Positions 1 to 58,691 of a DNA stretch of 64,000 nt are shown piece by piece (within the stretch, counting starts at the first letter, position 1; the number at the start of each line of letters is the position of its first letter). The DNA is taken from the NCBI GenBank assembly GCA_963675785.1, contig OY776562.1:1678893-1742892 (forward strand), given 5' to 3'. The notes below the pieces were generated by a model, which saw only the letters and a program-made list of their open reading frames with translations, was not told the DNA's origin and searched no databases. The position numbers were made by a program, and so were the translations under genes. This stretch comes from Anaerolineae bacterium. GTDB taxonomy: Bacteria > Chloroflexota > Anaerolineae > UBA1429.

Positions 1-144
1 GTCGGCCAGGGGCTGGTAGACGGGCGGGCCCACCCGACCCTGGAACAGCGCTACCAGCTTGCGATCCAGCCAGTGCACCAACAACGAGGCCGCCAGCACG
101 TACAGCAGCCCGGGGAACACCAGCACATGGAACAAGGTCGTCAT
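1..144 (-). CDS. NuoH/HycD/MbhM-like membrane subunit of the complex-I-type hydrogenase (N-terminal 48 codons only; gene runs off the window start)
   Basis: Reverse-complement of 1-144 translates in frame as MTTLFHVLVFPGLLYVLAASLLVHWLDRKLVALFQGRVGPPVYQPLAD, matching the conserved NuoH/ND1 N-terminus (R-x-GP...QP-AD). ATG at 144-142 with GGAG about 8 nt upstream; 36-nt gap after the large-subunit stop at 181. Not in the ORF track because it has no stop inside the window. Confidence 0.6.
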   Translation of the reverse strand, partial: MTTLFHVLVFPGLLYVLAASLLVHWLDRKLVALFQGRVGPPVYQPLAD

Positions 145-180
145 CAAGAACTCCTATCAGGGAGATCAGGATCTCCGATC

Positions 181-1263
181 TCAGCGGTCAGCACAAGCGA
201 TACACAAGTCGGCCCCGGCAATCACCGCGGCTACATCGGCGGTCTGCACGCCCGAAAGCAAGTGCGGCAGGCTGGCCAGGGTGGGCAAGGTTGGCGTGCG
301 CACTTTGACCCGCGCTGGCGTATCAGAGCCATCCGAACGCACATAGTAAAACAGCTCGCCGCGCGGCGCCTCTATGCGCGTGGTCACCTCGCCAGCGGGC
401 ACCCGCCGAGGAGCGCGCACTTGCACTTCACCCTCGGGCAGGCCGTCTAATATCTGATGGACGATTTTCAAGCTCTCGTCGATCTCGGCCAGACGCGTAT
501 GCGCCCGGCACCATACATCGCCGCCGGTGCCGGTAATCACTTGGAAATCCATTTCCTCATAGGCCAGGTAAGGCTGTTGTTTGCGGATATCCAGCGTGCA
601 GCCCGAAGCGCGCGCCGTGGGGCCTACCAGGCCAAGTCGGTGCACCAGATCGCCGCCCATCACCCCCAGTCGGCGGGTTCGGGCCTGAAAATTGCGGTCG
701 TGCAGCACCATATCGCGAAACAGCTTGAGCTGCTCCTCAAACTCGGCCAAGTTGGTTTGTACATAGCGCTCGTGGTCGGGTGTCAGATCGATGCGCACCC
801 CGCCGATGGAGGTAGCCGAATGGGACACGCGTCCGCCGGAGAGATCCTCCATCAGGTCGAGGATGATCTCGCGGTCGCGCCAGGCGTACATGAAAATAGT
901 GGTAAAGCCAATGGCCTCGGAAAGCACGCCCAACCAGAGCAGGTGGCTGTGGATGCGCTCTAATTCGCAAAGCAACATGCGAATGTATTGGGCACGGCGC
1001 GGCACCTCGATACCGGCCAGCTTTTCCACCGAGAGGCAAAAGGTGGTGGTGTGGGCTTGCGAACAAATACCGCAAACACGCTCGACCAGGTGCACATTCT
1101 GAATATAAGTGCGCTGCTGGGCCAGCTTTTCGATGCCGCGATGCACATAGCCGATGCGCAGATCGGCGCCCAACACGGTCTCGCCAGATACGCTCAGGTT
1201 GATGGAAAGGGGTTCTTTGAGCAAGGGATGTTGCGGCCCGATGGGGATACGAGTCGGCGTCAT
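181..1263 (-). CDS. Group 4 (energy-converting, membrane-bound) [NiFe]-hydrogenase large subunit, NuoD/HycE/EchE/MbhL family
   Basis: N-terminal L1 motif RVCGICSQAH (RxCGxCxxxH) and C-terminal DLCIACADR (DxCxxCxxR): both NiFe-ligating CxxC pairs are present, unlike NuoD. The rest resembles NuoD. Confidence 0.85.
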   Translation of the reverse strand: MTPTRIPIGPQHPLLKEPLSINLSVSGETVLGADLRIGYVHRGIEKLAQQRTYIQNVHLVERVCGICSQAHTTTFCLSVEKLAGIEVPRRAQYIRMLLCELERIHSHLLWLGVLSEAIGFTTIFMYAWRDREIILDLMEDLSGGRVSHSATSIGGVRIDLTPDHERYVQTNLAEFEEQLKLFRDMVLHDRNFQARTRRLGVMGGDLVHRLGLVGPTARASGCTLDIRKQQPYLAYEEMDFQVITGTGGDVWCRAHTRLAEIDESLKIVHQILDGLPEGEVQVRAPRRVPAGEVTTRIEAPRGELFYYVRSDGSDTPARVKVRTPTLPTLASLPHLLSGVQTADVAAVIAGADLCIACADR

Positions 1264-1697
1264 GCGTTCTCCTCCTCATTCAACAAAGGCGGTGGTCCCT
1301 GCCAGTCGTCGGGCAACAGCAGCGGCTTGATCTCCCCCCGGCCCTCGATGGTGACGCCCAGCATCTCGTGCACCTCGCGCTCGTACCAGTTGGCTACCAG
1401 CATAATCGGGGTCAGGCTGGGTACGCTCAGATCATCCATCGGCAGCAACAGGCGCAGGGTAATGCCACAGCCGCCGTAAAAGTGGTACATCAGTGAGACG
1501 CCCTGGGGCAGGCGTTGGCCAGTGATGGTGGTCAAGTGGTGCACATCTGCCGCCACCAGGGCTCGCGCCGCCTCGATCAGATTCTCACGGGGCAGGTCAT
1601 AGCAAATCTCGTTCTGGGGGCCCTCACCGCGTTGGGCACCGCATTCAACAAGCGCAGTGTCGATGGCGGCGAGATCAGCAGAAAGCAGATCATCCAT
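1260..1697 (-). CDS. NuoC-like / hydrogenase 30-kDa subunit (HycE N-domain, EchD/MbhK-like)
   Basis: 145 aa, NuoC-family sequence (…ANWYEREVHEMLGVTIEG…). 4-nt overlap with the downstream large-subunit gene. Confidence 0.75.
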   Translation of the reverse strand: MDDLLSADLAAIDTALVECGAQRGEGPQNEICYDLPRENLIEAARALVAADVHHLTTITGQRLPQGVSLMYHFYGGCGITLRLLLPMDDLSVPSLTPIMLVANWYEREVHEMLGVTIEGRGEIKPLLLPDDWQGPPPLLNEEENA

Positions 1698-2116
1698 CAG
1701 ATACCCTCCAACAGTTGGGAAATGGCCTCGATGACGGCCTCGGGGCGTGGCGGGCAGCCGGGAACATACAAGGCCACCGGCACCACCTGATCGATACCGC
1801 CCAGCACGTTATAGCTGGCCTGCACAATGCCACCCGAACAGGCGCAAGCGCCAATGGCCACCACCCAACGCGGCTCGGCCATCTGCTCGTAAATGCGCCG
1901 TAGCGGGCGCGCTGACTGGCGCGTCACCGGCCCGGTGGTCAGCAGAATGTCGGCGTGACGCGGCGAGGCCTCTTTGAGGATTCCCAGCCGCTCAATGTCA
2001 TAGCGGGGCGTCAGCAAGTCGAGAATCTCGATATCGCAGCCGTTACAGCCGCCGGTGTTGTAATGCAGCACCCAGGGCGATTTACGCCGCGCCCAGCGCA
2101 CCACGCGGTCGATCAT
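1697..2116 (-). CDS. NuoB-like hydrogenase small subunit (4Fe-4S), MbhJ/EchC/HycG family
   Basis: Cys ligands GCNGCD, GACACSGG, PGCPP. The ORF track extends to 2152, but an internal ATG at 2116 (MIDRVVRW…) gives an ATGA overlap with the upstream gene's stop; either start is possible. Confidence 0.8.
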   Translation of the reverse strand: MIDRVVRWARRKSPWVLHYNTGGCNGCDIEILDLLTPRYDIERLGILKEASPRHADILLTTGPVTRQSARPLRRIYEQMAEPRWVVAIGACACSGGIVQASYNVLGGIDQVVPVALYVPGCPPRPEAVIEAISQLLEGI

Positions 2117-2451
2117 GATTCCTCTCCCTCGTGGGTTAGTACGTCCACGCAAAGCCCGGTGCCCAGCAAAAAGGCCGCTGCCAGCACCCAGGCGTTGCCC
2201 TCCAGGGGCAGCATAGCTACCACCAGTGCGGCCATGTGTACCACCACAAACATCAAACCCAGCCTGAAATAACGTTGGTAAGAGAGCTCCATCTCCTCAG
2301 GCACTAACTCTTGCCCCCCGGCGTAAGGCTCTATCTTGCCAGGTTCATCATCTCGACCGCGAGGGGCGATCCTGCCGGACCAGCGATAGAGGCCATAGGC
2401 CAACAATCCGAAAAGGGCCAGCGCCAGTGGGGGGCTTGTCAACCAATCCAT
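2113..2451 (-). CDS. NuoA-like small membrane subunit
   Basis: 112 aa, hydrophobic, with a conserved-looking PYAGGQE loop (compare NuoA YECG). Sits directly before NuoB as in nuoAB. Confidence 0.5.
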   Translation of the reverse strand: MDWLTSPPLALALFGLLAYGLYRWSGRIAPRGRDDEPGKIEPYAGGQELVPEEMELSYQRYFRLGLMFVVVHMAALVVAMLPLEGNAWVLAAAFLLGTGLCVDVLTHEGEES

Positions 2452-2452
2452 G

Positions 2453-3895
2453 TCAACCTCCCAAGGCCAACAAGGAGGCAGCTGCTTTCGTAGCAGCTAC
2501 CATCACCGGGGTGGGCCAGACGCCCATCCCCAAGGCCATAACCGCCATTAGCACCATGGGCACCAGCATCCAGGCGGAAACAGGAGCATGCGGCCCCTCA
2601 ATGCGCTTGTGGGTGAGCAGTCGACCCACCAGGGGCACGTAATAGCCCAAGCTAAGCAGGCTGTTGAGCACAAAAAGCACCACCACCGTGCCACTCAGCC
2701 AATCCCACTGGCGCAGACCGCCCTGCAAGAACAGCCACTTGCTGATAAAGCCGTTGAGTGGTGGCACACCGGCCAGCCCCAGCAATGCCACAGTGAACAC
2801 TACCGTCGTGGCCGGTGCGCGGTCCATCAACCCGTCCAGATCAGAGAGCATGGTGCTATCCATGTAATAGTGACAAACGCCTTTGCTGAGAAAAGCCAGC
2901 CCCTTGAGCAGCGCGTGGGCGGCAATGAGGTAAAAAGCCGCGGCCAGCATCTCCACATGCCCGCTGACCAAACCCAACCCCAGGGCCGCGGCCACATAGC
3001 CGGTCTGGGCAATGGAGGAATAGGCCAACATCCGCTTGCCGTAGGTTTGCACCAGGGCCATGCTGTTGCCCACCGTCATGTTGAGCACGCCCTCGACCAC
3101 CAGCGCCCAACCCAAAATTCGCGGCTCAATGCCCAAGCCCAGCCCTACGCGCACCAACACCAGCAGATTGACCTGGATGAGCACACCAGAAAGTAGCGCG
3201 CTGATGCTGGATGGCGCTCGTCCATGAGCATCGGGTAACCAGGTGTGCGCTGGCACCAAGGCTGCCTTGACGGCGTAGCCGAGCATCATCAGCACGGCGC
3301 CAAACAGGCCCCAGGTGCCCATGGCAGCAGCACCACTAGTCAAAGCCAGGCTCCCCGACTGGCGATAGACATAGCCCAGGCCAAAGAGGATGAGCATGGC
3401 TGCAGATGAGCCCATGATGGCGTACTTGAAACCAGCCTCCACGGCGGTATCCGTGGTGCGGCGAAAGGCCACCAGCACATAAGAGCAGGCGCTGGCCAGA
3501 ATGGTAGCCAGATAGAGCGTGAAGAGATCGACGGCGCAGAGCATGGCCAGCAGACCAGCGCACATCAGCAGCACCAGTGAATAGTAATAACGATAGCGCT
3601 TATCCTCCGACATATAGCGCCCCGAGTAGACGGAGATTAGCAGACCCAGGCCCAACACGATGACGCCCATAAAACGCGATACATCGTCTATAACAAAAGT
3701 GGCCGCCGTACCCTGGCTGGAGGTCCAAGCTAGGCCGTTTGTCCAGCCAAGCAGTAGGCGTCGCAAGGCCACAGCAAACACAGCGGCTGTAAGCAGGGCC
3801 ATCAAGCCATTACTGCTGATGAGGCGGCTGACGACATAGAGCGATACCGCGCCCAGCGCTAGTACGACCAGGGGAGCCAACAGGGGATCAGACAT
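2453..3895 (-). CDS. Antiporter-like membrane subunit (NuoN/NuoM/MrpD family)
   Basis: HTWLPDAHGRAPSSISALLSG motif typical of the MrpD/NuoLMN family. The ORF track start is 3946; an internal ATG at 3895 (MSDPLLAPLVV…) abuts the upstream stop at 3897. Confidence 0.75.
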   Translation of the reverse strand: MSDPLLAPLVVLALGAVSLYVVSRLISSNGLMALLTAAVFAVALRRLLLGWTNGLAWTSSQGTAATFVIDDVSRFMGVIVLGLGLLISVYSGRYMSEDKRYRYYYSLVLLMCAGLLAMLCAVDLFTLYLATILASACSYVLVAFRRTTDTAVEAGFKYAIMGSSAAMLILFGLGYVYRQSGSLALTSGAAAMGTWGLFGAVLMMLGYAVKAALVPAHTWLPDAHGRAPSSISALLSGVLIQVNLLVLVRVGLGLGIEPRILGWALVVEGVLNMTVGNSMALVQTYGKRMLAYSSIAQTGYVAAALGLGLVSGHVEMLAAAFYLIAAHALLKGLAFLSKGVCHYYMDSTMLSDLDGLMDRAPATTVVFTVALLGLAGVPPLNGFISKWLFLQGGLRQWDWLSGTVVVLFVLNSLLSLGYYVPLVGRLLTHKRIEGPHAPVSAWMLVPMVLMAVMALGMGVWPTPVMVAATKAAASLLALGG

Positions 3896-3896
3896 G

Positions 3897-5378
3897 CTAG
3901 GCACCTCCGGGAATGAGCAATCCGGCGGCGGCACTGCCCCAGCCATAGAGCAGGCCGGGAAACAACCCCAGTATGAGCACCAGCAGCACAGCCGCCGCAG
4001 TAGACCAACGCATGGCCGCTGGCACCTGTTGTACGGCCATATCCAGCGGGGCTTGGCCGCTGTTTACGCGCACAACAAGCCATACCGCGTACATGGTCGT
4101 AGCCAGCGGTGCCAACAGTTCCAGCACGGCCAACAAGCTATAGGGCGCAGCAAACCCGGCCAGGATGATTTGCAATTCGCCGTAAAAGGCGGCAAAGGGC
4201 GGTAGCCCGGCAATAGCCATGGCGCCCAGTGCCAACCAAAGGCCAGCCCCGGGCAATACCCGGGCCAGTCCACGAATCCGCTCAATATTGCGCCGCGAGG
4301 TGGCCAGCATGATCCAGCCCACGGCCATAAACAGCGCTGCTTTGATCAAGCCGTGGGTAACCACCTGCATCACGGCGCCGGTCAGGCCGGCCTCACTCAG
4401 CGTACCGATGGCAAAGAGCACATAGCCCATCTGGCTGACGCTGGAATAAGCGACGATGCGTTTGATGTCGTGTGAAGAGATGGCCATCAGGGCGCCGTAT
4501 ATCTGTGACACCAAACCGGCGATCATCAGCGGCACTTGCAAGGGCTGTAATGCCGCCACGCCCAAAATGCCCACGGCAAAACGCATCATGCCATAGGCAC
4601 CCATGCTGAGCATAGCCCCAGCCAACATCACCGTCACCGGCATGGGAGCGATCGAGTGGGCATCGGGCAGCCAGGTGTGCAATGGAAAGACTGCCAACTT
4701 GACGCCAAAGCCCAACACCAACAAACCAGCCAACCAAGTGAGCGTCGTGGCAGGAATTCCTGCCGCCATAGCCTGGCCAGTCATATCGGTGGTACCAGAG
4801 TGAACCGCCATATAAGCCAGCACGCCCAGCACCGTCAGCGAGCCAAGCTGGGTATAGAGCACGTACTTGAACGTAATGCGCCCAACCTGCTCGCCACTGC
4901 CCCACCACAAGAGCAATAAGCTGGAGGCTACCAGCATGAGTTCCCAAAAGAGGAAAAAGACCAGCGCATCGTGGGCCAACACGGTGCCCACCATACTGCC
5001 GCAAAAGGCAGCCATGAGCGCATAGACGACGTGCCCGCGTGGAAAGCTTTGTAAATAGCCCAGACCGTACAGGCTGGCCAACAGTGTTACGCTCAGCACG
5101 GTGATGGCAAAAGGCCGGGCCAGGGCATCCAGCACCAGGCTAAAGGATGGCCCGTTCTGAATCCAAGGCAGTGAGAAGGAGCTTGCAGGTGCGACAATCA
5201 CTAAAACGAGGGTAGCTCCCACAGCGGTACAGGTCGCCACACCGGCGATGCGCGTCCGCTTGGTCAGCCGCGCGGGCAAGACGAAACTGATCAGGCTTGC
5301 CGCCCAGGGCAGTATCAGAATGAGAGCGAGCATCCAGGGCAAGGTTAGCCTCCTACAATAACGAAAATACAGCAACAA
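3897..5378 (-). CDS. Antiporter-like membrane subunit (NuoM/MrpD family)
   Basis: HTWLPDAHSIAPMPVTVMLAG motif; polytopic, 493 aa. An alternative start at 5333 is possible. Confidence 0.8.
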   Translation of the reverse strand: MLLYFRYCRRLTLPWMLALILILPWAASLISFVLPARLTKRTRIAGVATCTAVGATLVLVIVAPASSFSLPWIQNGPSFSLVLDALARPFAITVLSVTLLASLYGLGYLQSFPRGHVVYALMAAFCGSMVGTVLAHDALVFFLFWELMLVASSLLLLWWGSGEQVGRITFKYVLYTQLGSLTVLGVLAYMAVHSGTTDMTGQAMAAGIPATTLTWLAGLLVLGFGVKLAVFPLHTWLPDAHSIAPMPVTVMLAGAMLSMGAYGMMRFAVGILGVAALQPLQVPLMIAGLVSQIYGALMAISSHDIKRIVAYSSVSQMGYVLFAIGTLSEAGLTGAVMQVVTHGLIKAALFMAVGWIMLATSRRNIERIRGLARVLPGAGLWLALGAMAIAGLPPFAAFYGELQIILAGFAAPYSLLAVLELLAPLATTMYAVWLVVRVNSGQAPLDMAVQQVPAAMRWSTAAAVLLVLILGLFPGLLYGWGSAAAGLLIPGGA

Positions 5379-6666
5379 AAGCCAGCGCTAGTACAATCAG
5401 GCCGGCCATCCAGGCCAGATTGGCCCGCAGCTTGCCCGTGTGCAGGCGGCGCAAACGGCGCCCTACCTCCAATGCTGAACGCTGTACATTGACAAAACCC
5501 TTTTCAAGGACATGCTCATCGATGGCGCTGGCCGCACGCGAGGCGCTCTCGGTCAAATGCCAAACCCAGGCATTGAGTGGCTCTAGCAGCCGCGTCTCGA
5601 CGAATAAGGCCGCAATCGAAAGCCTATCCCATCTTGTGTTCAATGGGGCGTTATCAGCGTATTCGCCCCGAGCCTCGTCCACAACTCTTGGGGCAGACAG
5701 GATCATCAATACCCCTCGCAGCGGCATGAAAGAATAGAGATAGGCATATGGCCAGCCCAGAGGCACAATCACCAGCGCAAGCGCCCCATGTGCTACTTCC
5801 AAATGGTGCAAGCGCAACCTGCTTTCGGCTCGAACAGCGCAAATCAGAGCCCAGATCATGATTCCGGCACCGGCCACAACCAAAGGAGTCGTCAGGTGCA
5901 GTGCCTGAATGCCGCCCTCCAAACGATAGAGCAAATAGGCGCCCAACAGAGGTAGGCCCGCCGTAGCCGCCGACCATCGTTCAGGGCTAGCGATCTCGCC
6001 TGCAACGGCTAACCAGCGATCAAATGGATAGAGGCCCAGCTTGATCCACACTGCCAACAGGCCCATCAGTACTGCCAGCCAGGTGGTACCATCGGCTGCC
6101 TGGGCAGCGGCAGCCAACATGGGGGAGATGAGCAGCGTGTCGTGGGCCTGCCAGAGCACGATGATAGCCCCCAGCAAAGCCAGATCGCCCAAACGCAAAG
6201 TGAGAAAAGAGCCGACTAGATCGCGCCAATTGCCGCGACGTACCGTCATAACCAGCGTGGCCAAAGCAGCCGCCTCCAGAAAGGCATAGCGGTAGAGAAA
6301 ATGGTTGACGTTCAGCGCAGCAAAAGAGGCAGCCAGCAAGATCGGTGCAGCCAAAGCCTGCCACCAGGCCGACGCAGGTTGATCGGCATCTTGCCAAAGC
6401 AGCAGGGCATAGCCCAGAATGGCCAGCCCGCTCAACTCGGTGCCGCGCTCATCCAGGGCAATCACTCCCGGCTCGATCCAGGGAATCCAGCCCAGATTGA
6501 TCGTTGAAGCATCGCGGTGAACTAGGGCCACCAACGCAGCCAAAGCAACAGCTACCGCCACCATACGCAATAGCCGCGCGCGTTTGGCTGTAACCGGAGC
6601 AGGCAAGGTACGCAGCAGTCCTCCTGCCAAAGCCAGTGCCAGCGTTGCCATGATGAAATAGATCAT
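5353..6666 (-). CDS. Divergent third antiporter-like/polytopic membrane subunit (NuoL/MrpA-superfamily-like, degenerate motif)
   Basis: 437 aa, very hydrophobic, with a degenerate FDRWLAVAGEIASP in place of HTWLPDA. Its position between the MrpC-like and MrpD-like genes fits an antiporter-like subunit. Confidence 0.5.
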   Translation of the reverse strand: MIYFIMATLALALAGGLLRTLPAPVTAKRARLLRMVAVAVALAALVALVHRDASTINLGWIPWIEPGVIALDERGTELSGLAILGYALLLWQDADQPASAWWQALAAPILLAASFAALNVNHFLYRYAFLEAAALATLVMTVRRGNWRDLVGSFLTLRLGDLALLGAIIVLWQAHDTLLISPMLAAAAQAADGTTWLAVLMGLLAVWIKLGLYPFDRWLAVAGEIASPERWSAATAGLPLLGAYLLYRLEGGIQALHLTTPLVVAGAGIMIWALICAVRAESRLRLHHLEVAHGALALVIVPLGWPYAYLYSFMPLRGVLMILSAPRVVDEARGEYADNAPLNTRWDRLSIAALFVETRLLEPLNAWVWHLTESASRAASAIDEHVLEKGFVNVQRSALEVGRRLRRLHTGKLRANLAWMAGLIVLALAFVAVFSLL

Positions 6667-6986
6667 CCGCGTAGCGTCCTGAGGTCATCCACCTCACCAG
6701 AGGGGAAATAGCGCAAAGCGTTGATAGTAAGCGCTAGAACGATGGCCAACACGATGGTCTCGGCCACCAAGGCAGAGACCACCAGACTTTGCACTAACTC
6801 CAAGTCGCCCTGTACGCGGGCGGCATCCACAAAGTTGAGCAGGGCGCCCTGCAACATGATGTTGAGACCGATGACCTGTTTGAGCAGACGACGACAGGTA
6901 AGAAGACAGAGGAAGCCAATCAAGATCAGCGCAGCAGAGAGTAACGGGTTGACGATATCTAGCAGAGGATCGGGTAAAGACTGCAT
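6663..6986 (-). CDS. NuoK/MrpC(MnhC)-like small membrane subunit
   Basis: 107 aa, three predicted TM helices; VIGLNIMLQGALLNF resembles the NuoK/MrpC signature. Confidence 0.65.
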   Translation of the reverse strand: MQSLPDPLLDIVNPLLSAALILIGFLCLLTCRRLLKQVIGLNIMLQGALLNFVDAARVQGDLELVQSLVVSALVAETIVLAIVLALTINALRYFPSGEVDDLRTLRG

Positions 6987-6989
6987 GAT

Positions 6990-7220
6990 CTAACTCTCCT
7001 CGTCACGGCCGGGCAGCAAAGCGCGAATGCCCAAGGCCCCGGCAAACATGAGAGCCAACTGAAACAAGAGATCGGGCTGGCGGGATGTCCAGAGGGTGAA
7101 AAAGGAGGCTTCTTCACTCGAGGATTTTTCTCCCAGTAAAATGTAAAGGCCTGCCCCAAGCACCAGCAAAAGGATCACGCCGGTTCTGCCCAGAAGCAGG
7201 TCAATGAGTTTGGACTTCAT
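6990..7220 (-). CDS. Small hydrophobic Mrp/Mbh-type subunit
   Basis: 76 aa, two hydrophobic segments; in the operon with 3-nt spacing. Confidence 0.4.
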   Translation of the reverse strand: MKSKLIDLLLGRTGVILLLVLGAGLYILLGEKSSSEEASFFTLWTSRQPDLLFQLALMFAGALGIRALLPGRDEES

Positions 7221-7246
7221 CGTCTCCCCACAGTTTTATGGCCGGG

Positions 7247-7528
7247 TTAAACCCCGGGGCTATTGTCACGGGTCTCTTGTTTGCGCCGTTTGCCGATGGA
7301 TTCGGCCAAGCTAAGAGCGATGATAAAAAGCGTGCTCACCAATCCAGCGCCCACAGAAAGCTGAATAGCAGCAGCATAAGGCGCCTGCAGTAGGTAGAAC
7401 ATCAAAGCCAAGCCGCTGCTGGCCACAATGAGAGCCCCAGCTGCTCGGATGAGTTCCCTGGTACGAACGGCTACAATCGCCGCCGTCAGGACAAGTGCTG
7501 CTGCTACCAGATATGCTGTCGTCATCAC
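7247..7528 (-). CDS. Small hydrophobic Mrp/Mbh-type subunit (MnhB/MbhD-E-like)
   Basis: 93 aa, three hydrophobic segments; first gene of the membrane-arm block. Confidence 0.4.
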   Translation of the reverse strand: MMTTAYLVAAALVLTAAIVAVRTRELIRAAGALIVASSGLALMFYLLQAPYAAAIQLSVGAGLVSTLFIIALSLAESIGKRRKQETRDNSPGV

Positions 7529-7674
7529 TCACTCTGTTGTATTGAAGAAAAAACCGCGTCGGTCTGCCATGGCCGGTGCGGTCTATCTTTTATATATCAT
7601 AGCATAGCAGGCGGCAACAGGCAACCAACATGAAAAAAGCGCCCCGCAACAGCGGGGCGCTCAGGAAAACAGGA

Positions 7675-8454
7675 CTATCTACAACAGAGTGTGCCTTCAC
7701 GGGGACAGGCGCCGGTGCATTCCATGCAGCGAATGCATTCCATGCTGCGCTCTACCTCGGTAGATGGGTCAATATCCATGGGACAGATGGCTTCACAACG
7801 CCCGCAAGAGACACAACTGGTCTCATCGGCCTTGATGCGCCAACGAGAGAATAAGTTGGTGACGGAGAGCACCGCCCCCAGAGGACAAGCATAGCGGCAC
7901 CAAAAACGCTCAATAGCGATGGACCAAATCAGGAATACGACGACCACGCCAGCACCCAGGGCACTGCCTACATTCATGGTGAACAAGGTACGGTAGGGAC
8001 AAAAGGCCATGAGGGGCGGCACCACAGCGGTGATGCTGGCATAGATCACCCAGCCCAGCACCAGCCACTTGACCCAGCGCATAGGACGGTCGAGCCAACG
8101 CGGCAGATGAATGGGCAACCAGTGCTTGCGCCCACCGGTAATGCGCCGCAAAAAGCGGCTAATCCAACCCTGTACCGTGCCCAAGGGGCAAAACCAACCA
8201 CAGAACACCCGACCAAAGAGAACCCCAGAGATCAACACTAGCCCCAGCAACACCAAATTGATGATGCTGGTATAGCGTAAAACGGTGCCTGAAGTAAGAA
8301 AAGTTGAGATCAACTCAATGCCACCCATGGCGCAAATGGCGTCAAAGGAAGCAATGAGCCCCAGTGAAAAGGCTATGCCGATGCCGATGGCAATGAGTAA
8401 GCCAATACCCTGCGAGATGCGGCGGTAGATCTGAAGGCGATTCTTGGCCGCCAT
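7675..8454 (-). CDS. NapH/MauN/CcoG-type membrane-bound 4Fe-4S polyferredoxin
   Basis: CGWFCPLG and CRYACPLG motifs in the TM region; C-terminal ferredoxin motifs CVSCGRCEAICP and CIRCMECTGACP. Confidence 0.75.
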   Translation of the reverse strand: MAAKNRLQIYRRISQGIGLLIAIGIGIAFSLGLIASFDAICAMGGIELISTFLTSGTVLRYTSIINLVLLGLVLISGVLFGRVFCGWFCPLGTVQGWISRFLRRITGGRKHWLPIHLPRWLDRPMRWVKWLVLGWVIYASITAVVPPLMAFCPYRTLFTMNVGSALGAGVVVVFLIWSIAIERFWCRYACPLGAVLSVTNLFSRWRIKADETSCVSCGRCEAICPMDIDPSTEVERSMECIRCMECTGACPREGTLCCR

Positions 8455-9281
8455 CAGTGACTGCCCCTGCCGGAGCCACTGGAAGAACTGGAAAGCTGCT
8501 CATAGAGTGCGGGCTCGGAGTAATCACAATAGCCATTGCCGTTGGAATCGACATAGTCATGGCACAAGCCGGGATAAGGATCCCAAACCTGCCCTTTGGG
8601 ACAGGCTACTTGCCCAGTGACGCTGGTATCGACGGTGGAATCGGATGTCACAGCAGGCACGGCGGTTGCCGTCGCTGTTGCGACCGCAGTTGTGGCCGTT
8701 TCCTCGATCAAAGTATCTGATGATTCTTCGGGCTCAGACAGGTCGCAAATGGCGTTGTTGTTCAGATCGCAATAGCGATTGCACTGACCCGGGAAGGGAT
8801 CATTCAATATGCCAAAAGGACAAGCAACCACAACAGCAGCAGTCGCCGTTGCTTCGGCGGTAGCCTCAGCAGTTGCGGATGATTCTGTTGTTGCATCCGG
8901 TGTAGCCGTGGCCATTGAATCAGCCGCAGGTTCGGAATAGTCGCAATAGCCGCTGCCGGTGGTATCCACGTAATTGAGGCACTGGCCGGGGTAGGCATCG
9001 TACTGTAATCCAAAGGGGCAAGTGGAGACGAAACTGGAATCCACAGTTACCGTTGCAACAGCCGCTGCCGCAGCCGTCGTGGCGCTGGATGATTCTATGC
9101 GGTCGCACAATGCGTTGCCATTGGCATCGTAACAGGCAGCACAGGGGCCAGTGCAAATGCCATCAGCCGAAATGGGGCAATCGCTCACGATGTAAAGTCC
9201 ACCCATGGCTCCGGTAGCAACCACGCCTCCGGCAAGCACCAGGAACTGTCGGCGGTCGAGTTTTCGTTTCTTGGGGACCAT
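8454..9281 (-). CDS. Tat-exported Cys-rich repeat protein (four copies of a ~31-aa CP-x-G…PGxC…D-x-N-G-x-G-x-CD-x-SEP module); novel
   Basis: Twin-arginine motif KRKLDRRQFLVLAGG. Modules: CPISADGICTGPCAACYDANGNALCD, CPFGLQYDAYPGQCLNYVDTTGSGYCDYSEP, CPFGILNDPFPGQCNRYCDLNNNAICDLSEP, CPKGQVWDPYPGLCHDYVDSNGNGYCDYSEP, separated by Ala/Thr/Ser linkers. Start chosen at ATG 9281 (MVPKK…), which has AGGAAGGG upstream; the ORF-track start 9314 has no RBS. Confidence 0.65.
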   Translation of the reverse strand: MVPKKRKLDRRQFLVLAGGVVATGAMGGLYIVSDCPISADGICTGPCAACYDANGNALCDRIESSSATTAAAAAVATVTVDSSFVSTCPFGLQYDAYPGQCLNYVDTTGSGYCDYSEPAADSMATATPDATTESSATAEATAEATATAAVVVACPFGILNDPFPGQCNRYCDLNNNAICDLSEPEESSDTLIEETATTAVATATATAVPAVTSDSTVDTSVTGQVACPKGQVWDPYPGLCHDYVDSNGNGYCDYSEPALYEQLSSSSSGSGRGSH

Positions 9282-9398
9282 TATACCCTTCCTGTGTATG
9301 GTTGGATAAAGCATATTAGATGACTATAGTATAAGGAATAAATGTTCGTGAAATGTTAAGAGTCAATCAGGATGTTGCATAGTTAAAGCTGTTCTTAC

Positions 9399-9445
9399 AG
9401 AGCATCTCCGGGAGGGCAACCAGAGGTTGTTCCCGGAGATGCTCT
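9399..9445. promoter_or_regulatory. Perfect 15-bp inverted repeat (AGAGCATCTCCGGGA…TCCCGGAGATGCTCT) with 17-nt spacer: candidate operator or structured RNA element between the anti-sigma gene and the hydrogenase operon
   Basis: Read directly from the sequence. No convincing U-tract on either side, so it is not a classical intrinsic terminator. Confidence 0.4.
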
Positions 9446-9494
9446 ATTTACTGCTGTGAATCAAGGGACAAGGTGCAGAATGAGCACATCCTCA

Positions 9495-9782
9495 TCAGAG
9501 GGTTTGGAGGGCGACGAGCAATGCGGTAAATTCCCTGCGGCAATCCGGGCAGGAAGCCAGATGCTGCGCCACTCGCGGCATAGCCTCGTCCGCCGAGAGC
9601 CCAGCCAATGTGAGTTCCGCATAGCGATCGACTTGTGCCAAACATTCGTCGCAGGTCAGCTCGTCGTTTGGGGTTTCCAAACACCGCCTAACAAGGTTCT
9701 TGAGTGCGTCCAAATCCATCTGCCCTATCTCCCCTATGTCATCAACGATAGGGTCAGAGGCGAAATTCTTACGAAAAACCAT
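9495..9782 (-). CDS. Zinc-binding anti-sigma factor (ZAS/zf-HC2 type, RsrA-like), cytoplasmic
   Basis: 95 aa, no TM segment; CDEC…HLASCPDC gives a C…HxxxCxxC arrangement like RsrA. Overlaps the ECF sigma gene by 14 nt. Confidence 0.65.
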   Translation of the reverse strand: MVFRKNFASDPIVDDIGEIGQMDLDALKNLVRRCLETPNDELTCDECLAQVDRYAELTLAGLSADEAMPRVAQHLASCPDCRREFTALLVALQTL

Positions 9783-10425
9783 TCAGGATTTCCTCAGCCG
9801 ATATCCCCGTGGCCAGCAGTGTATCGCGCAGCTTGACCCGAGCGTCATGGACAAGTTTATACAGAGCATTGCTGTTGGTATCCATACTTGCCGCCACCTC
9901 GGCAACGGGAATACCCTGCAAATGTACAGCCAAAAGCGCTTCACGCTGGCGCGGTGAAAGCTCTTTCAGAGCCTGGCCTAATGTATTGAGTAGATCATCC
10001 TGTACAGTGCGCTGCTCCGGATCAGGGGTCGAAATGCTCAAACGGGCAATGAGCGCCGGAAAATCATCACTCCGTTCGGCCTCTAGCGGAACATCGCGCC
10101 AACGCATACGGCGCAGCTCGCTATAGACGGCGTGCACGGTTATCTTGGTCGCCCAGGTGGTAAAACGCGCCTCGCCGCGATAGGTATCAATGTGTTCGAT
10201 GATGCGCAACAACGAATCCTGTATCAAGTCTTCGAGGTCGGCTTCGGTAAGGGGTGTATTGGCAAAAGCCCTGATCATGCCCCGCAACAAAATGACACGC
10301 AGATCCTGAATGGCCATAGCTTGCTGAGGTACACCAGCCTTGAGTTCGGCCACCCAGTCCGCATCGCTCCGTTCCGGCATTGAACCGGCTTCGAGGGACG
10401 CCCTCTGCATGTCATCCCTTTCCAT
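9769..10425 (-). CDS. ECF-type RNA polymerase sigma-70 factor
   Basis: Sigma-70 region 2-like (DLIQDSLLRIIEHIDTY…FTTWATKIT) and region 4-like (LSPRQREALLAVHLQGIPVAEVA) segments. Confidence 0.8.
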   Translation of the reverse strand: MERDDMQRASLEAGSMPERSDADWVAELKAGVPQQAMAIQDLRVILLRGMIRAFANTPLTEADLEDLIQDSLLRIIEHIDTYRGEARFTTWATKITVHAVYSELRRMRWRDVPLEAERSDDFPALIARLSISTPDPEQRTVQDDLLNTLGQALKELSPRQREALLAVHLQGIPVAEVAASMDTNSNALYKLVHDARVKLRDTLLATGISAEEILNGFS

Positions 10426-10433
10426 TTCGCTGC

Positions 10434-11690
10434 CTACTTGCCATCGAGTTCAAGGCGCTTGAAACCACCAAAAGGCATAAAGATCGTCTCTCCCGGTGTG
10501 GTTTTCAGGCTGGCACGCAACGGTGTCTTTTCACAAATACCCGCCATGGCGCTGAGCTGTGTCTTTTTGCAGTCACTGGCCTTTTGCAAACCCTTGACCT
10601 GCGCCTTTTTCAAGCCTTCTATGACCAGTTCGCCATCAGGCAGATTGCGAGCACGCAGTGTCGGGGTTTCCGGCGCCACATCCAGAGCAGCATCACGCAC
10701 AAAATCAGCAATGAGTAGATCATCCGAGGCCGTCTCCAGCACGATGAGCGGGTTGGCGTTATTGCTGGCCTTCCAAGTGTGCACATCACGGATAGAGACG
10801 CGAGTGACTGCGCCAACACCATTGGCCACCGCAGGATCGTCGGGATCAAAGATGGGCGTTGCGCAATAGCGGGCAGCGTCCATATTGATGGCATGGCAGT
10901 TCACGCCGCCGCTCAAGTTGGAGATACGCACATCCTCGATGGGGGCATTGACGCTGAGTAAGCGAACCAACGTATGGCAACGCTGCACTTGAACGTCATC
11001 CACCTGAATGCGACGGATGGGACCGCGATCCATGCCCAGATTGAGCACGCGGGTGACACAATCATCGGCATTGAACGCCAATACGTCATCGTTAGGCACC
11101 GAGGGCCCATAAGCTCGCAAGTGGCGGATGACGCCGTCTTCACAATAGCCACCAAGATGAATGCCATCATGGTTGGGGCGCACATGCGGCGCCTCAAAAG
11201 TGATGCCCTCGATGGTAAAATTACTCACATGCCCCAGGCGAACAAAAAAAGCCTCGGGGTCACGCAGGGTCATGTTACGCAACCTAAAGTTTTGTGCCTC
11301 AAAAAAGTTGATGAGCGTGCCGGTATAGCTGCCTGGCTTTTCGGGGCCGCGCGGGTTTCCGGGGTTGTTGCCATCCCAAATGCCGCCTTCAATCGTAAAG
11401 CCCACCGCATCCCGCTCGTTGGTCAGCAAAAAGCTGTCGCTATCTACGCCGGCGCCATCCGCCATGTAGAGTCGGGCCAGCGGATGCACCACCAAGCGAG
11501 TGTTAGAAGCCACACGCAGGGTTTTGCCGATGCAGTACGTACCGTAAGGGATGGTTACCAACGGCTCGCCCGAATCCAAGGCCCTTTGGATCGCCGCGCT
11601 GTCGTCAGCCTCACCATTGCCCACGGCACCCATATCCAGCACATTGATGCCAAAGGTTTCGTTGCTCATTACATCGTCCCAATCTGCCAT
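10434..11690 (-). CDS. Right-handed beta-helix protein of the pectate-lyase superfamily (GH28/GH55-like glycosidase)
   Basis: N-terminal INVLDMGAVGNGEADDSAAIQRALDSG matches the Pectate_lyase_3 signature; the rest has repeated beta-helix-like turns. Confidence 0.65.
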   Translation of the reverse strand: MADWDDVMSNETFGINVLDMGAVGNGEADDSAAIQRALDSGEPLVTIPYGTYCIGKTLRVASNTRLVVHPLARLYMADGAGVDSDSFLLTNERDAVGFTIEGGIWDGNNPGNPRGPEKPGSYTGTLINFFEAQNFRLRNMTLRDPEAFFVRLGHVSNFTIEGITFEAPHVRPNHDGIHLGGYCEDGVIRHLRAYGPSVPNDDVLAFNADDCVTRVLNLGMDRGPIRRIQVDDVQVQRCHTLVRLLSVNAPIEDVRISNLSGGVNCHAINMDAARYCATPIFDPDDPAVANGVGAVTRVSIRDVHTWKASNNANPLIVLETASDDLLIADFVRDAALDVAPETPTLRARNLPDGELVIEGLKKAQVKGLQKASDCKKTQLSAMAGICEKTPLRASLKTTPGETIFMPFGGFKRLELDGK

Positions 11691-11726
11691 GATGTCTCTC
11701 CTGATTGCTTCAATCTGTTAGCAAAG

Positions 11727-12710
11727 CTATTCCAGCAAGAATGCTTCCAACTGCCGCACTCCCCGCCTCTCTAATTCGCCGGCGCGACGCAGTCGTCCAG
11801 CCAGCGCAATGCGCACCTCTTCTGGAGGGCACTTTTCTGTCGAAAACGCCTGCCAGATCGGCAGCAGCTCTTTTGCCAGGTGGGCATAGGTTTCGGCAGC
11901 ATCGGCCAGTGCGGGGTATTCTCCAATCAAAAGGCGCAGATAGTCGCGAGCATAGCAGCGCGCCCCTACCCACTGGGCCGCATAATAGGCAGACCAATCC
12001 CAATTGACCGAGCCCTCATAGTCTGGCTCGATGGTATTGGCCCACTGAGTATAAGCGGGCAGTCCGTTCACGTAATCCGGCAGTTCCATCCGCTCACGCT
12101 CAGAAGCATGGTCAACAGCAATTTGCAGCGAGCGGCGTACAACCTCCTTTCGGGAGCGTCCATTGGGCTCGCCAACAACGGTGACCGATAGAAGAGAAGG
12201 ATCGGTTCCGCGATTGCCCAGTTTTTCACAGGGCAGGGTGCCCAGTTCACCAGTGCAAGAGATGAACTCGTAGACACGAGCGACGGCATCATAGCCGACA
12301 ATTAACTCCCATTCGGGGATGGACATATCCCAGGAAATGGCGGGGATACCCCGCTCCAAACCTTCAAGAATGGCAACATGAGCCCGTTGCTGGCGTTCGG
12401 ATTGCAATTCATCTTCCCACCACATGCGACTCACATACGTACAGCCATGGCCCAGTTGGGCGACAGACTCTGTGAGCTGATCTGCCCAATCGAACACAGA
12501 GATGGCACTCGGGCACAAGTCCTTGTGGACATTGATGCGAAAGGCCCAGCCACTTGCCCCCATGAGCCAAGCGGGGGCGTAATCCTCACCAAGGACACGC
12601 AGTACAGCGCCAAGAGATGCCATATAGGTGTTCCACAGGCCGGGCTCACCTTTTGCTACAGCCGCCGAGTCTATATACCACGCGACGTCGCCAACATGAA
12701 GGCTTTCCAT
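11727..12710 (-). CDS. Hypothetical protein
   Basis: 327-aa ORF with plausible codon usage; no recognisable motif. Confidence 0.45.
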   Translation of the reverse strand: MESLHVGDVAWYIDSAAVAKGEPGLWNTYMASLGAVLRVLGEDYAPAWLMGASGWAFRINVHKDLCPSAISVFDWADQLTESVAQLGHGCTYVSRMWWEDELQSERQQRAHVAILEGLERGIPAISWDMSIPEWELIVGYDAVARVYEFISCTGELGTLPCEKLGNRGTDPSLLSVTVVGEPNGRSRKEVVRRSLQIAVDHASERERMELPDYVNGLPAYTQWANTIEPDYEGSVNWDWSAYYAAQWVGARCYARDYLRLLIGEYPALADAAETYAHLAKELLPIWQAFSTEKCPPEEVRIALAGRLRRAGELERRGVRQLEAFLLE

Positions 12711-12811
12711 TCGGGCCCTCCGTTCGTTATATAACTATGTTAGCCTCTGACACAGGCGGGGTCAATAGCTCATTCGCACAAAGACGATCAGCAAGGGCAG
12801 AGTGGCTGTAG

Positions 12812-12841
12812 TTGGCAATCTACCGGCTCTTGTGGTATACT
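12812..12841 (+). promoter_or_regulatory. Candidate sigma-70 promoter (TTGGCA-N18-TATACT) for the bS22-like gene
   Basis: Hexamers read from the sequence about 45 nt upstream of GTG 12885. Confidence 0.35.
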
Positions 12842-12884
12842 ATCTAACCGTAGAGGGAGTTAACCGCAGTTCAGGAGGCTATAC

Positions 12885-12977
12885 GTGGGCAGCGTTATCA
12901 AGAAGCGTCGCAAAAAGATTGCTCGGCACAAGTACCGCAAGATGCTTCGCAAGCAGCGTTTCCAGCGCCGCAAGTAG
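12885..12977 (+). CDS. Small ribosomal-protein-like basic peptide, bS22 family (30 aa)
   Basis: GTG start preceded by AGGAGG (6-nt spacing). Product VGSVIKKRRKKIARHKYRKMLRKQRFQRRK closely resembles the conserved bS22 peptide (MGSVIKKRRKRM…HRKLL…RRK). Missed by the ORF track, which has a 60-aa minimum. Confidence 0.6.
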   Translation: MGSVIKKRRKKIARHKYRKMLRKQRFQRRK

Positions 12978-13052
12978 CAATAGCGTTCGAGTATATACGC
13001 CCCCAGGCGTTGCGGGTGCGCACAAAGCGCACCCGCCTTTTTGCTAGTAGGG

Positions 13053-13088
13053 ATGCCGCAGGCTGACAAGCTTGCGGCATTTGCTTTG
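13053..13088 (+). terminator. Hairpin (ATGCCGCA…TGCGGCAT) plus T-run; probable terminator for the bS22-like gene
   Basis: 8-bp stem, 12-nt loop, followed by TTGCTTTGG. Confidence 0.4.
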
Positions 13089-13089
13089 G

Positions 13090-14352
13090 CTAAAGCGCAC
13101 CGTATTCACGAACGGCATCAAACAGCGCCACAAGGTTCTCTGTGGGTATGCCCGATTGGATGTTGTGCACGGCGTCAAAGATGAACCCCCCGCCGGGCGA
13201 TAGAATCTCGATTTGCTGGCGTACGTGCTCGCGAATCTCCTCCGGCGTGCCAAAAGGCAACACCCACTGTGTATCGATGCCCCCGCCCCAAAACACCAGC
13301 TTGTCTCCCCAGCGCTCTTTGAGCGCCGTCGGGTCCATCCCCTCGGCAGCAATCTGCACTGGATTGACGATATCCACCCCGGCATCGATCAAGTCATCGT
13401 ACAACTTGACCATGGAGCCGCACGTGTGGAAAAAGGTCTTCCAGGTAGTGTGGGCGTGAATCCAATCGTTGATGGCCTTGTGATTAGGCTGGTACAGCTT
13501 GCGATACGCTCGCGGCGAGATGAAGGGGCCGTTCTGGGTGCCAAAATCGGTGCCGCTGACAAAGACGGCGCAAATGCGCTCGCCCACCGCCTGGTGATAC
13601 ATTTCTAGATTCTTTAAGCAGATTTCGCGCTGTAAAGCATAAATCTCTTGCACGTAATCCGGATAAAGCAGCGAAGCCATGTACCAATCAGCCACCTTAC
13701 GAATGCCGTGGGGTTGCTTCACATGAGGAGCCGGCACATAAGCGATATCCCCAAAAGAACCCTGGCCCCAATTACCGATGATAGCCTTGTCCGTGCCCTC
13801 ATACAGAGCACGACTGCGTTCCTCCAGCAGGCGCAGTTCATCCTCAGTGTAGAGAGCATACATCTCATCCACCCAGGCCTGTGGGTCTAGCTCCTCGGGT
13901 TTGAAATCCAGTTGACGCTCAATGGAATCATGATAGTAACCATCGACGGGCATACGGGCTGAAGGCGACGCCATGCGGTCTCCTTGAGGGTATTGGTAGA
14001 GATAGCCATCAGCCGCCGGCTCGGTGTTATAGAGGCCGGGCACCAGCACCGGGGTGCCATCAAAGAGCCGCCAGGGTTTCCAATCGGTCGCCGGAAAACC
14101 GTAAAAGGTGCCGTCGTCGCGCAAGCCCAATACATCGATGCCCAGCGCCTCGATCACATCCTCTTCAACCAAGCCCAGCATCTGGTAGGGCTCAAACACC
14201 TTGACCTGACGTTCCTCCAGACCTAGCGCGGCCCGCAGTTTGTACAAAGACGAGGCTGTAATGCCGGTAACATTGGTGGACCCCAAGTCCAAAGGAACGC
14301 GATCCGGCTGCCGATGGTCAAGAGCAGCCATAACCCGTTCGCGAGCTCTCAT
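13090..14352 (-). CDS. Uroporphyrinogen-decarboxylase (URO-D/MtaA) family protein, paralog 1
   Basis: 420 aa; URO-D-like C-terminal region (…FHTCGSM…GGGFIFDAVHNIQ…). Confidence 0.7.
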   Translation of the reverse strand: MRARERVMAALDHRQPDRVPLDLGSTNVTGITASSLYKLRAALGLEERQVKVFEPYQMLGLVEEDVIEALGIDVLGLRDDGTFYGFPATDWKPWRLFDGTPVLVPGLYNTEPAADGYLYQYPQGDRMASPSARMPVDGYYHDSIERQLDFKPEELDPQAWVDEMYALYTEDELRLLEERSRALYEGTDKAIIGNWGQGSFGDIAYVPAPHVKQPHGIRKVADWYMASLLYPDYVQEIYALQREICLKNLEMYHQAVGERICAVFVSGTDFGTQNGPFISPRAYRKLYQPNHKAINDWIHAHTTWKTFFHTCGSMVKLYDDLIDAGVDIVNPVQIAAEGMDPTALKERWGDKLVFWGGGIDTQWVLPFGTPEEIREHVRQQIEILSPGGGFIFDAVHNIQSGIPTENLVALFDAVREYGAL

Positions 14353-14541
14353 AGCGATTCTCCTTGCAAGAAATGACCTGGCTGCATTCTAGCCACCGCC
14401 CTCATCAGCCGCAACCACAACGAGACTGTCTCATTCATCTACACCTAGCCTTGCCCTTGACACCCCACTCGACCGGGGGCACACTCTGGCCAAAGATGTA
14501 TGCAGCAAAGCAGTATGTAATCCGTAGGAGGGTTGGCAGAG

Positions 14542-58463: not shown

Positions 58464-58569
58464 CTTTTTCCTCCTCGTCGGGCAGAAAGCGCCGAGTCAT
58501 CTCTATTTTCCTCCGCCGCCCCGCCCATGCCTAAGCAATTTAGGCATTTAGAACAACAATATGGCGAGT

Positions 58570-58597: not shown

Positions 58598-58691
58598 GCA
58601 AAAAAAGGGACGAATTTTATGATTTTCTGAAATTGCTCGTACTTGCCTTGCAACTAATGGTGACAGGAGTGACAACTCTCCCACAAAAAGA

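Follow-up and report, generated by a model that had tools for sequence, protein, structure and literature searches.

What does a two-gene module for an exported cysteine-rich protein and a membrane polyferredoxin do in front of a complex-I-like hydrogenase operon? The question is raised by a 64,000-nucleotide stretch of an Anaerolineae genome (GenBank assembly GCA_963675785.1, contig OY776562.1, positions 1,678,893 to 1,742,892, hereafter the window), in which thirteen genes follow one another on the minus strand from position 9314 to position 1, the last one clipped by the window edge. A preliminary description, made from the sequence, had read them as one operon of at least 14 genes of undescribed architecture, in which H2 metabolism might be coupled to an extracytoplasmic redox partner. 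Every gene that it listed is present on the minus strand. We consider it highly probable, however, that the region holds two independent units, an 11-gene Mbh-like hydrogenase operon (Unit A) and a self-contained two-gene cassette (Unit B), which are neighbors only in this lineage, because the gap between them contains a terminator and a promoter-like site, because the relatives of the hydrogenase lack this adjacency and because the cassette stands alone elsewhere. The unusual 5' module is then a matter of adjacency and not a new architecture. Coordinates of all features are collected in Table 1.

Table 1. Genes, signals and units of the region, in window coordinates (aa, amino acids).
Feature	Position	Strand	Basis or remark
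Unit A, 11-gene Mbh-like operon	about 7528 to below 1, past window edge	-	
Unit B, self-contained two-gene cassette	about 9281-7675	-	between strong hairpins
Anti-sigma-like gene upstream of cassette	9495-9782	-	
Large near-perfect hairpin between anti-sigma-like gene and cassette	9385..9460	-	dG -39.6 kcal/mol, z -9.1
Promoter-like TTCACG-18-TATAGT upstream of Cys-repeat gene	9352..9323	-	
Cassette gene 1, Cys-repeat protein, 275 aa	8454..9281	-	PF27309 MJ0753_N
Cassette gene 2, NapH/MauN/NosR/CcoG-type membrane polyferredoxin, 259 aa	7675..8454	-	Fer4_5 1.6e-17
Intrinsic terminator, 11-bp stem with 9 G-C pairs, 4-nt loop, then UUUUUU	7637..7662	-	
Promoter-like TTGCCT-17-TATGAT, extended -10 TG	7596..7624	-	consensus match only
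Hydrogenase gene 1, MbhD/NuoJ-like small membrane subunit, 92-93 aa	7247..7528	-	Pfam, PDB
Hydrogenase gene 2, membrane protein at MbhE position, 76 aa	6990..7220	-	conserved in relatives
Hydrogenase gene 3, NuoK/MbhG/MrpC-like, 107 aa	6663..6986	-	Pfam Oxidored_q2 3.9e-13
Hydrogenase gene 4, degenerate antiporter-like subunit, 437 aa	5353..6666	-	PF00361 1.1e-6, 28.5 bits
Hydrogenase gene 5, NuoM/NdhD-like antiporter-like subunit, 481 aa	3897..5342	-	PF00361 1.9e-60
Hydrogenase gene 6, MbhH/NuoN/MrpD-like antiporter-like subunit, 480 aa	2453..3895	-	PF00361 1.5e-51
Hydrogenase gene 7, membrane protein at MbhI/NuoA position, 112 aa	2113..2451	-	position, conserved loop
Hydrogenase gene 8, NuoB/MbhJ-like small subunit, 139 aa	1697..2116	-	PF01058 6.6e-33
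Hydrogenase gene 9, NuoC/MbhK-like, 145 aa	1260..1697	-	PF00329 3.7e-21
Hydrogenase gene 10, [NiFe] large subunit, 360 aa	181..1263	-	PDB best match MbhL
Hydrogenase gene 11, NuoH/MbhM-like, first 48 codons only	1..144	-	rest beyond window edge
Gene 12 of region, NuoI/MbhN-like 2x[4Fe-4S], 121 aa	beyond window edge		sister contig L001

The gap between the cassette and the hydrogenase operon

The stop codon of the NapH-like polyferredoxin gene lies 146 bp from the start of the MbhD-like gene, while all junctions within the hydrogenase operon overlap or measure less than 40 bp. An intrinsic terminator begins 13 nt past the NapH-like stop codon; it folds with a predicted free energy (dG) of -24.9 kcal/mol (z -4.4), and none of 200 shuffled sequences folded as well. 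Scanning positions 1-10500 against Rfam returned only sub-threshold small-RNA matches, which fall on the terminator hairpin and reflect that hairpin only. The terminator is followed, about 70 nt upstream of the MbhD-like start, by a promoter-like site, and the two together split the first two genes from the other eleven, contrary to the single operon first proposed. With the adjacency not conserved either, the NapH-like and Cys-repeat genes are, as far as sequence can show, probably transcribed separately from the hydrogenase genes. The putative hydrogenase leader, downstream of the promoter-like site, also contains a weaker hairpin (7553-7582, minus strand; dG -16.6, z -2.0) followed by UUUUUUCUUC, which could be an attenuator or a chance match.

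At its other end the cassette is bracketed as well, because a second hairpin and a promoter-like site stand upstream of the Cys-repeat gene too. This hairpin, without a clean U-run, is probably the 5' border of the cassette transcription unit, and may act in termination, RNA processing or regulation.

The same division emerges from the relatives. A scan of one genome per species returned at least 600 related hydrogenase loci, 80 of which were kept for comparison and which, with four further annotated contigs, make up the 84 loci compared here. No NapH-like or Cys-repeat match was found near the operon in any of the 80 genome loci (tblastn, even at E<0.1), nor is either gene present in the four annotated contigs, so that the combination of NapH-like, Cys-repeat and group 4 hydrogenase genes, for which a synteny search had been suggested, recurs in 0 of 84 loci. 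In the nearest relatives whose upstream sequence could be used (large subunit 66-67% identical), the cassette genes are missing and the operon begins at the MbhD-like gene. Genes upstream of the MbhD-like gene in ten loci are unrelated (GH32, HAD-like, DUF6064, MgtE, VCA0040-like, Hsp70-like, or of no family), and those of the two closest relatives are divergently transcribed (FeoAB in one, an acyltransferase in the other).

Conversely, the relatives of the NapH-like protein with at least 47% identity (loci L085, L086, L087, L154 and L171) all have a gene of the Cys-repeat family, MJ0753_N, directly upstream and no hydrogenase genes (5/5), and next to three of these five stand-alone cassettes the following gene is on the opposite strand. 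The closest NapH-like relatives for which gene context was available are 55% (P0144), 52% (P0149), 48% (P0174 and L154) and 47% (P0172) identical. Across 83 NapH-like loci, a complex-I-like gene was nearby in only one.

Subunits and gene order of the hydrogenase

That the complex is of the group 4 [NiFe]-hydrogenase type is well supported at the level that sequence allows, because the large subunit keeps its Ni-Fe cysteines and has MbhL as its best solved match, and because the NuoB-like subunit keeps its cluster cysteines. The large subunit matches the Pfam models Complex1_49kDa (5.7e-72) and, in its N-terminal part, NiFeSe_Hases (4.2e-16), and its best solved relative is Pyrococcus furiosus MbhL (6cfw_L; 3.3e-81, 40% identity over the full length), ranked ahead of T. 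thermophilus Nqo4, HycE and MbsL among PDB entries (276 bits for MbhL vs 213 for HycE). Both CxxC pairs predicted to bind the Ni-Fe site, RVCGICSQAH (L1; C64, C67) and DLCIACADR (L2; C354, C357), align with those of MbhL, and the four cysteines are invariant in an alignment of 27 clade members of 59-68% identity. The protein ends with the Arg that follows L2 and has no C-terminal extension. The NuoB-like subunit, which exceeds its family cut-off (NF005012, 170.8 vs 116 bits), retains the four cysteines for the proximal [4Fe-4S] cluster (GCNGC, GACACSGG, PGCP). These results bear out what the preliminary description had said of both proteins and of the complex as a genuine group 4 enzyme in place of an Ehr or complex I relic, and they confirm its NuoB-, NuoC-, NuoD- and NuoH-like subunits, the last of these partial in the window. 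The near-identical sister contig L001 (ENA ERZ21862645) supplies what the window edge cuts off: a NuoH-like gene of 308 aa, then a NuoI-like ferredoxin subunit with both four-cysteine motifs kept, then an unrelated GrpB gene. The region thus combines two CxxC pairs and a four-cysteine NuoB-like protein with NuoC-, NuoI-, NuoH-like and antiporter-like subunits, as group 4 enzymes do.

The membrane arm begins with the MbhD-like subunit, which is recognized by Pfam (Oxidored_q3 1.2e-10, MbhD 8e-9) and among PDB entries (MbsD 7.5e-7, MbhD 3e-6). The 76-aa protein that follows returned no match in family-model and PDB sequence searches; its motif LDLL.Q..L.FAGALG is conserved in relatives, and a gene of 72-77 aa is called at its position in L173, L175 and L176. 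Of the two small subunits previously described as Mrp-like, the first is therefore identified as MbhD/NuoJ-like, whereas the second keeps position and size without a family match. The assignment of the third gene as MrpC/NuoK-like holds, given its Oxidored_q2 match.

Three antiporter-like subunits had been claimed, and two are canonical. The 481-aa protein exceeds the cut-off of the NuoM subfamily (TIGR01972, 277.8 bits against 263.8) and in the PDB matches NdhD best (6tjv_D, 1e-52) and E. coli NuoM as well (7e-47); the 480-aa protein, encoded beside the 112-aa gene, has MbhH as its best PDB match (6cfw_H, 1.9e-55). The third, of 437 aa, is degenerate: its Pfam score is low (Table 1) and a PDB sequence search returned nothing. 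Alignment of orthologue profiles (hhalign) relates residues 3-300 to the NuoM-like family (98.6%, E 5.6e-16). It retains the Glu of transmembrane helix (TM) 5 and the Lys of TM7, but the fold is missing its C-terminal half; the final ~110 residues comprise about 80 amphipathic ones and, at the C-terminus, one hydrophobic TM helix. This C-terminal part may correspond to the lateral helix HL, which is said to be universal in this superfamily (PMC8165549). The subunit at this position varies within the clade: it has 414 aa and no Pfam match in L173, 470 aa with a clean PF00361 match in L175, and is absent in L176 (large subunit 67%). The 112-aa protein had been called NuoA-like, a label suggested by its position and a short K..PY.GGE loop motif, conserved in 21 loci, whereas family-model and PDB sequence searches gave no match. 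In MBH, MbhI provides a loop ('loop 1') that corresponds to Nqo7/ND3 of complex I (PMC8165549).

This kind of hydrogenase is common in Anaerolineae genomes. The loci L003-L024 (52-63% identity), all from Anaerolineae or Chloroflexota metagenome-assembled genomes (MAGs), have the gene order of the window: MbhD, small gene, NuoK, three antiporter-like genes, 112-aa gene, NuoB, NuoC, large subunit, NuoH and NuoI. Independent gene calls with Pfam labels give the same order in L173/L174 (62%) and L175 (66%), and L176 (67%) has two antiporter-like genes only. Relatives at 46-52% carry two or three antiporter-like genes and come from other Anaerolineae, including the cultured Longilinea arvoryzae (L074, with two such genes), and from Omnitrophota, Elusimicrobiota, NC10, Planctomycetota and some archaea. 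Reports of NiFe type 4 hydrogenases extend across the Chloroflexi supergroup; we found no literature specific to Anaerolineae that deals with Mbh and group 4. One Anaerolineales MAG (L015, positions 9952-15238) has a second, divergent group-4-like set directly downstream of the first, comprising NuoC, NuoB, a large subunit ~40% identical, NuoH and NuoI.

Among characterized enzymes the closest counterpart is MBH of P. furiosus (MbhA-N, PDB 6CFW, HydDB group 4d), which shares the order D-(E)-G-H...-I-J-K-L-M-N, supplies the best solved counterparts of the large subunit and of the proximal, MbhH-type antiporter-like subunit, is likewise matched by the MbhD-like subunit, and has no extra input module. 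Because an extra input module is missing here as in MBH, ferredoxin is the likely donor. Unlike MBH, the present operon starts at the MbhD-like gene, without MbhA-C (MrpEFG-like) or MbhF genes, has two extra antiporter-like subunits (one NuoM-like, one degenerate) and resides in a bacterium instead of an archaeon. MbhA-C and MbhF Pfam families are missing from every annotated copy, which sets the clade apart from the 14-subunit MBH sensu stricto. With FHL-2/Hyf of E. coli and Pectobacterium the enzyme shares group 4 membership, three antiporter-like subunits (HyfB, HyfD and HyfF in Hyf) and a NuoK-like subunit (PMC7384014). In Hyf, however, the large subunit is a fused NuoCD-type protein whose C-terminal tail is cleaved, and it is accompanied by the HyfA ferredoxin and a formate dehydrogenase partner, whereas here NuoC is encoded apart from the large subunit, which stops at L2, and no formate dehydrogenase or HycB-like gene lies in or beside the operon. 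Membership in FHL-2 or Ech was rejected because the subunit composition differs.

The inventory is nearly that of the eleven-subunit complex I, of NDH-1, of Fpo and of Ehr complexes (subunits like A, B, C, D, H, I, J and K, and three L/M/N-like ones). The operon differs in its D-type subunit, which keeps the four Ni-Fe cysteines that complex I and Ehr lack, in a gene order that follows Mbh and not Nuo, in a J-equivalent split into small proteins and in a truncated L-equivalent. An assignment of the large subunit to NuoD or Ehr was rejected on account of its conserved Ni-Fe cysteines. Finally, group 4 enzymes known from MAGs ('4g'-type, Mrp-Mbh-like without an oxidoreductase module) are likewise genome-only and, by prediction, coupled to ferredoxin and ion-translocating (PMC6349859). 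The large subunit encoded in L079, a Zipacnadia locus, shares 49% identity with the one here, and the class Zipacnadia is reported to carry group 4g enzymes; a link of the present hydrogenase to group 4g is hinted at, indirectly, by that identity, and the best PDB match, MbhL, gives a similar hint at group 4d. An undescribed architecture, as first suggested, is not what these comparisons point to: the gene order recurs in many Anaerolineae MAGs, three antiporter-like subunits are known from FHL-2/Hyf (PMC7384014), and Mrp-Mbh-like group 4 enzymes without an oxidoreductase module have been described from MAGs (PMC6349859).

The two-gene cassette

The first cassette gene had been delineated up to position 9314. 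A start at ATG 9281, preceded by the ribosome-binding site GGAAGG, is more likely, because the promoter-like -10 element ends at 9323, which places ATG 9314 at the predicted transcription start. The resulting protein, described earlier as a Cys-repeat protein exported by the twin-arginine translocation (Tat) pathway, does show a Tat-like signal (KKRKLDRRQFL and a hydrophobic stretch), followed by an N-terminal five-cysteine variant module and three C-x12-C-x11-C repeats at residues 88-118, 154-184 and 227-257 (window positions about 9020-8928, 8822-8730 and 8603-8511). Here the repeats follow the consensus CPxGxxxDPYPGxCxxYxDxNGNGxCDxSE, are joined by Ala/Thr/Ser-rich linkers, and each closes with a 12-residue EF-hand-like loop, DxNxNGxCDxSE. 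Pfam TAT_signal and EF-hand_1 matches are sub-threshold, and the EF-hand signal is elsewhere 'faint'. For this exact protein and its homologues a precomputed match to Pfam PF27309 (MJ0753_N) exists, and the family motif CPxGxxxDPxPGxCxxYxDxNxNGxCDxSE, of which there are three copies here, occurs in the homologues too, which also have the signal and the repeats in common, as well as a basic tail. In several of them the Tat-like signal terminates in a lipobox-like VSGC or VSAC. The family amounts to 431 cluster representatives at E<=1e-3 among 1.84 billion, and we found no literature on MJ0753.

The start codon of the second gene overlaps the stop of the first. Its product has about four hydrophobic segments, two CX3CP motifs (C85/C89 and C186/C190), two Fer4_5 motifs and two [4Fe-4S] motifs (C214-C224 and C240-C250). 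The NapH-like label it had been given stands for the superfamily architecture (two CX3CP and two [4Fe-4S] motifs), but not for a NapH quinol dehydrogenase subunit proper, as NapH cut-offs are far from reached (TIGR02163, 81.9 vs 213 bits; NF007013, 63.5 vs 234 bits). Matches to CcoG and NosR models are weak, a PDB search found no solved homologue, and the window yielded no nap genes such as napA and no nos, mau or cco genes. The NapH-like sub-clade has two further invariant cysteines, C41 and C152, in loops predicted by hand to face outward; the two may form an outward-facing thiol pair or a metal site. The cassette resembles NapGH (and NosR, MauN and CcoG) in these motifs and in having a Tat-signal extracytoplasmic partner next door, but that partner is a MJ0753_N Cys-repeat protein and not a NapG-type ferredoxin. 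By analogy with NapG and NapH, the Cys-repeat protein would act as the extracytoplasmic partner of the polyferredoxin, which would pass electrons between a cytoplasmic donor, or quinol, and the outer face of the membrane.

When metagenomes were scanned with the NapH-like alignment, most of the matches were distant (28-43% identity) and had no MJ0753_N neighbor, so the MJ0753_N association appears confined to the close NapH-like sub-clade. Other MJ0753_N proteins are fused to, or encoded beside, DUF4405, a cytochrome b-like membrane protein. In L082, L085-L087, L154 and L169-L171 the MJ0753_N protein always adjoins a membrane redox protein or is fused to it, be it DUF4405 or a NapH-like polyferredoxin. 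What recurs is the pairing of an extracytoplasmic Cys-repeat protein with a redox protein in the membrane.

Could the cassette serve metals? We tentatively entertain a CcoG-like metal-handling or metal-reducing system, in which the Cys/EF-hand-like repeats would bind metal outside the cell. The weak CcoG/NosR matches of the polyferredoxin, the three cysteines and 12-residue loop of every repeat, and one MJ0753_N/DUF4405 locus that adjoins a heavy-metal P-type ATPase are consistent with this, but the ATPase occurs in that one context only and neighbors elsewhere are heterogeneous.

Directly upstream of the cassette lie genes for an extracytoplasmic function (ECF) sigma factor (218 aa) and a 95-aa zinc-finger anti-sigma-like protein (together 9495-10425, minus strand), a pair not found beside the cassette in relatives. 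The remaining window contains two genes of the URO-D family, two large histidine kinases with multiple PAS domains, several genes for glycoside hydrolases and sugar use, and a tandem pair of 668-aa SBP_bac_5 solute-binding proteins. For these features the coordinates 13090-14352, 44702-45913, 20306-23455, 35876-39070 and 56457-60753, all on the minus strand, are reported jointly.

Proposed function, competing readings and significance

In the hydrogenase as we picture it, the peripheral arm would consist of the NuoB-like subunit with the proximal cluster, the NuoC-like subunit, the Ni-Fe large subunit and the NuoI-like subunit with two [4Fe-4S] clusters, and it would be anchored in the membrane by the NuoH-like subunit and the 112-aa protein at the MbhI/NuoA position. 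The ion-translocating arm would comprise the MbhD-like, 76-aa and NuoK-like proteins together with the MbhH/NuoN-like, NuoM-like and degenerate third antiporter-like subunits. By homology to P. furiosus MBH, reduced ferredoxin from fermentation would give up electrons that pass by way of the clusters in the NuoI- and NuoB-like subunits to the Ni-Fe site, where protons would be reduced to H2, and the energy released would drive H+ or Na+ export via the antiporter-like subunits; the reaction may be reversible. Since no formate dehydrogenase or CO dehydrogenase, nor any other input module, is attached to the operon, and the NuoI-like protein is the only input subunit, oxidation of ferredoxin is the likely half-reaction. 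The window is rich in sugar and polysaccharide utilization genes, which fits a fermenter.

Several observations weigh against this account of two separate units and of an H2-evolving hydrogenase. Terminators leak, so some read-through from the cassette into the hydrogenase operon is possible, and the promoter is called from a consensus match only, in a phylum about whose promoters little is known. The sister strain L001 shares the adjacency of cassette and hydrogenase, and since the nearest usable relatives are only 66-67% identical, an adjacency confined to this organism's genus is compatible with the comparison. A search for hyp maturation genes came up empty, both in the 64-kb window and, in relatives, up to 10 kb from the operon. 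AlphaFold2 (AF2) models add little: that of the Cys-repeat protein, from a 21-sequence alignment, has a mean predicted local distance difference test (pLDDT) score of 51 with the signal helix alone confident, and the single-sequence model of the 437-aa subunit (pLDDT 48) is usable for its secondary-structure pattern only. Ferredoxin as donor, H2 evolution as the direction and H+ or Na+ as the exported ion are, by homology only, the most likely choices.

The direction of catalysis is where the nearest alternative lies. The same enzyme might run in reverse, with an ion gradient driving H2-dependent reduction of ferredoxin for an anabolic or anaplerotic role, as in Eha/Ehb and some Ech. Group 4 enzymes are reversible in principle, and a large arm with three antiporter-like subunits would suit more ions per turnover. 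We nevertheless judge this unlikely: MBH, the nearest characterized relative, evolves H2, the Anaerolineae are mostly fermenters and the window is furnished accordingly with sugar and polysaccharide genes, and the locus indicates no H2-dependent anabolic partner.

Much less probable is the model put forward in the preliminary description, that of one operon of 13-14 genes in which the hydrogenase is wired via the polyferredoxin to an extracytoplasmic Cys-rich partner. It can draw on the common strand, the short distance, the same adjacency in L001 and the presence of Fe-S electron-transfer proteins from both units in the same membrane. The strong terminator and promoter-like site in the gap, the absence of cassette genes from all related hydrogenase loci compared and the solitary cassettes of all five close relatives speak against it, as does the electron path through the NuoI- and NuoB-like subunits, which is already complete, and the proposed coupling of H2 metabolism to an extracytoplasmic partner is not supported either. 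We give a marginally smaller chance still to a recruitment of the cassette beside the hydrogenase in this lineage, the two being linked by read-through or by their shared membrane location to form a hydrogenase-driven extracellular redox outlet; if true, an extracytoplasmic Cys-rich protein that binds metal could receive electrons from H2 or ferredoxin. In a weaker form of this idea, the cassette would be an undescribed, widespread transmembrane electron-transfer pair with a Tat-exported Cys/EF-hand-like repeat protein on its outer side. Least credible of all is a complex I, Ehr or Mbs-like oxidoreductase with another acceptor and NuoD as its large subunit, for although that subunit exceeds the NCBIfam NuoD equivalog cut-off (NF004739, 373 vs 360 bits) despite its four Ni-Fe cysteines, several sources label homologues 'NADH-quinone oxidoreductase subunit D', three antiporter-like subunits occur in complex I too and hyp genes are missing from the window, the Ni-Fe cysteines stand in canonical, clade-invariant L1/L2 contexts, the NiFeSe_Hases match and the precedence of MbhL over Nqo4 and MbsL point to a hydrogenase, NuoEFG genes are absent and the genes are ordered as in Mbh.

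With two independent units as the preferred reading, each acquires a significance of its own. The consistent pairing of MJ0753_N with a membrane redox protein is a separate clue, if a modest one, to an extracytoplasmic system for redox reactions or metal handling. As to the hydrogenase, automated annotation pipelines will tend to call the large subunit of this clade NuoD, an annotation trap for a clade that is large and has never been studied biochemically. Its membrane arm, with an MbhH-like, a NuoM-like and a truncated third antiporter-like subunit and no Mrp EFG module, makes a useful comparison point between MBH and complex I. Spanning Anaerolineae and candidate phyla, the clade is expected to govern how abundant fermenters of sediments and digesters balance ferredoxin against H2.

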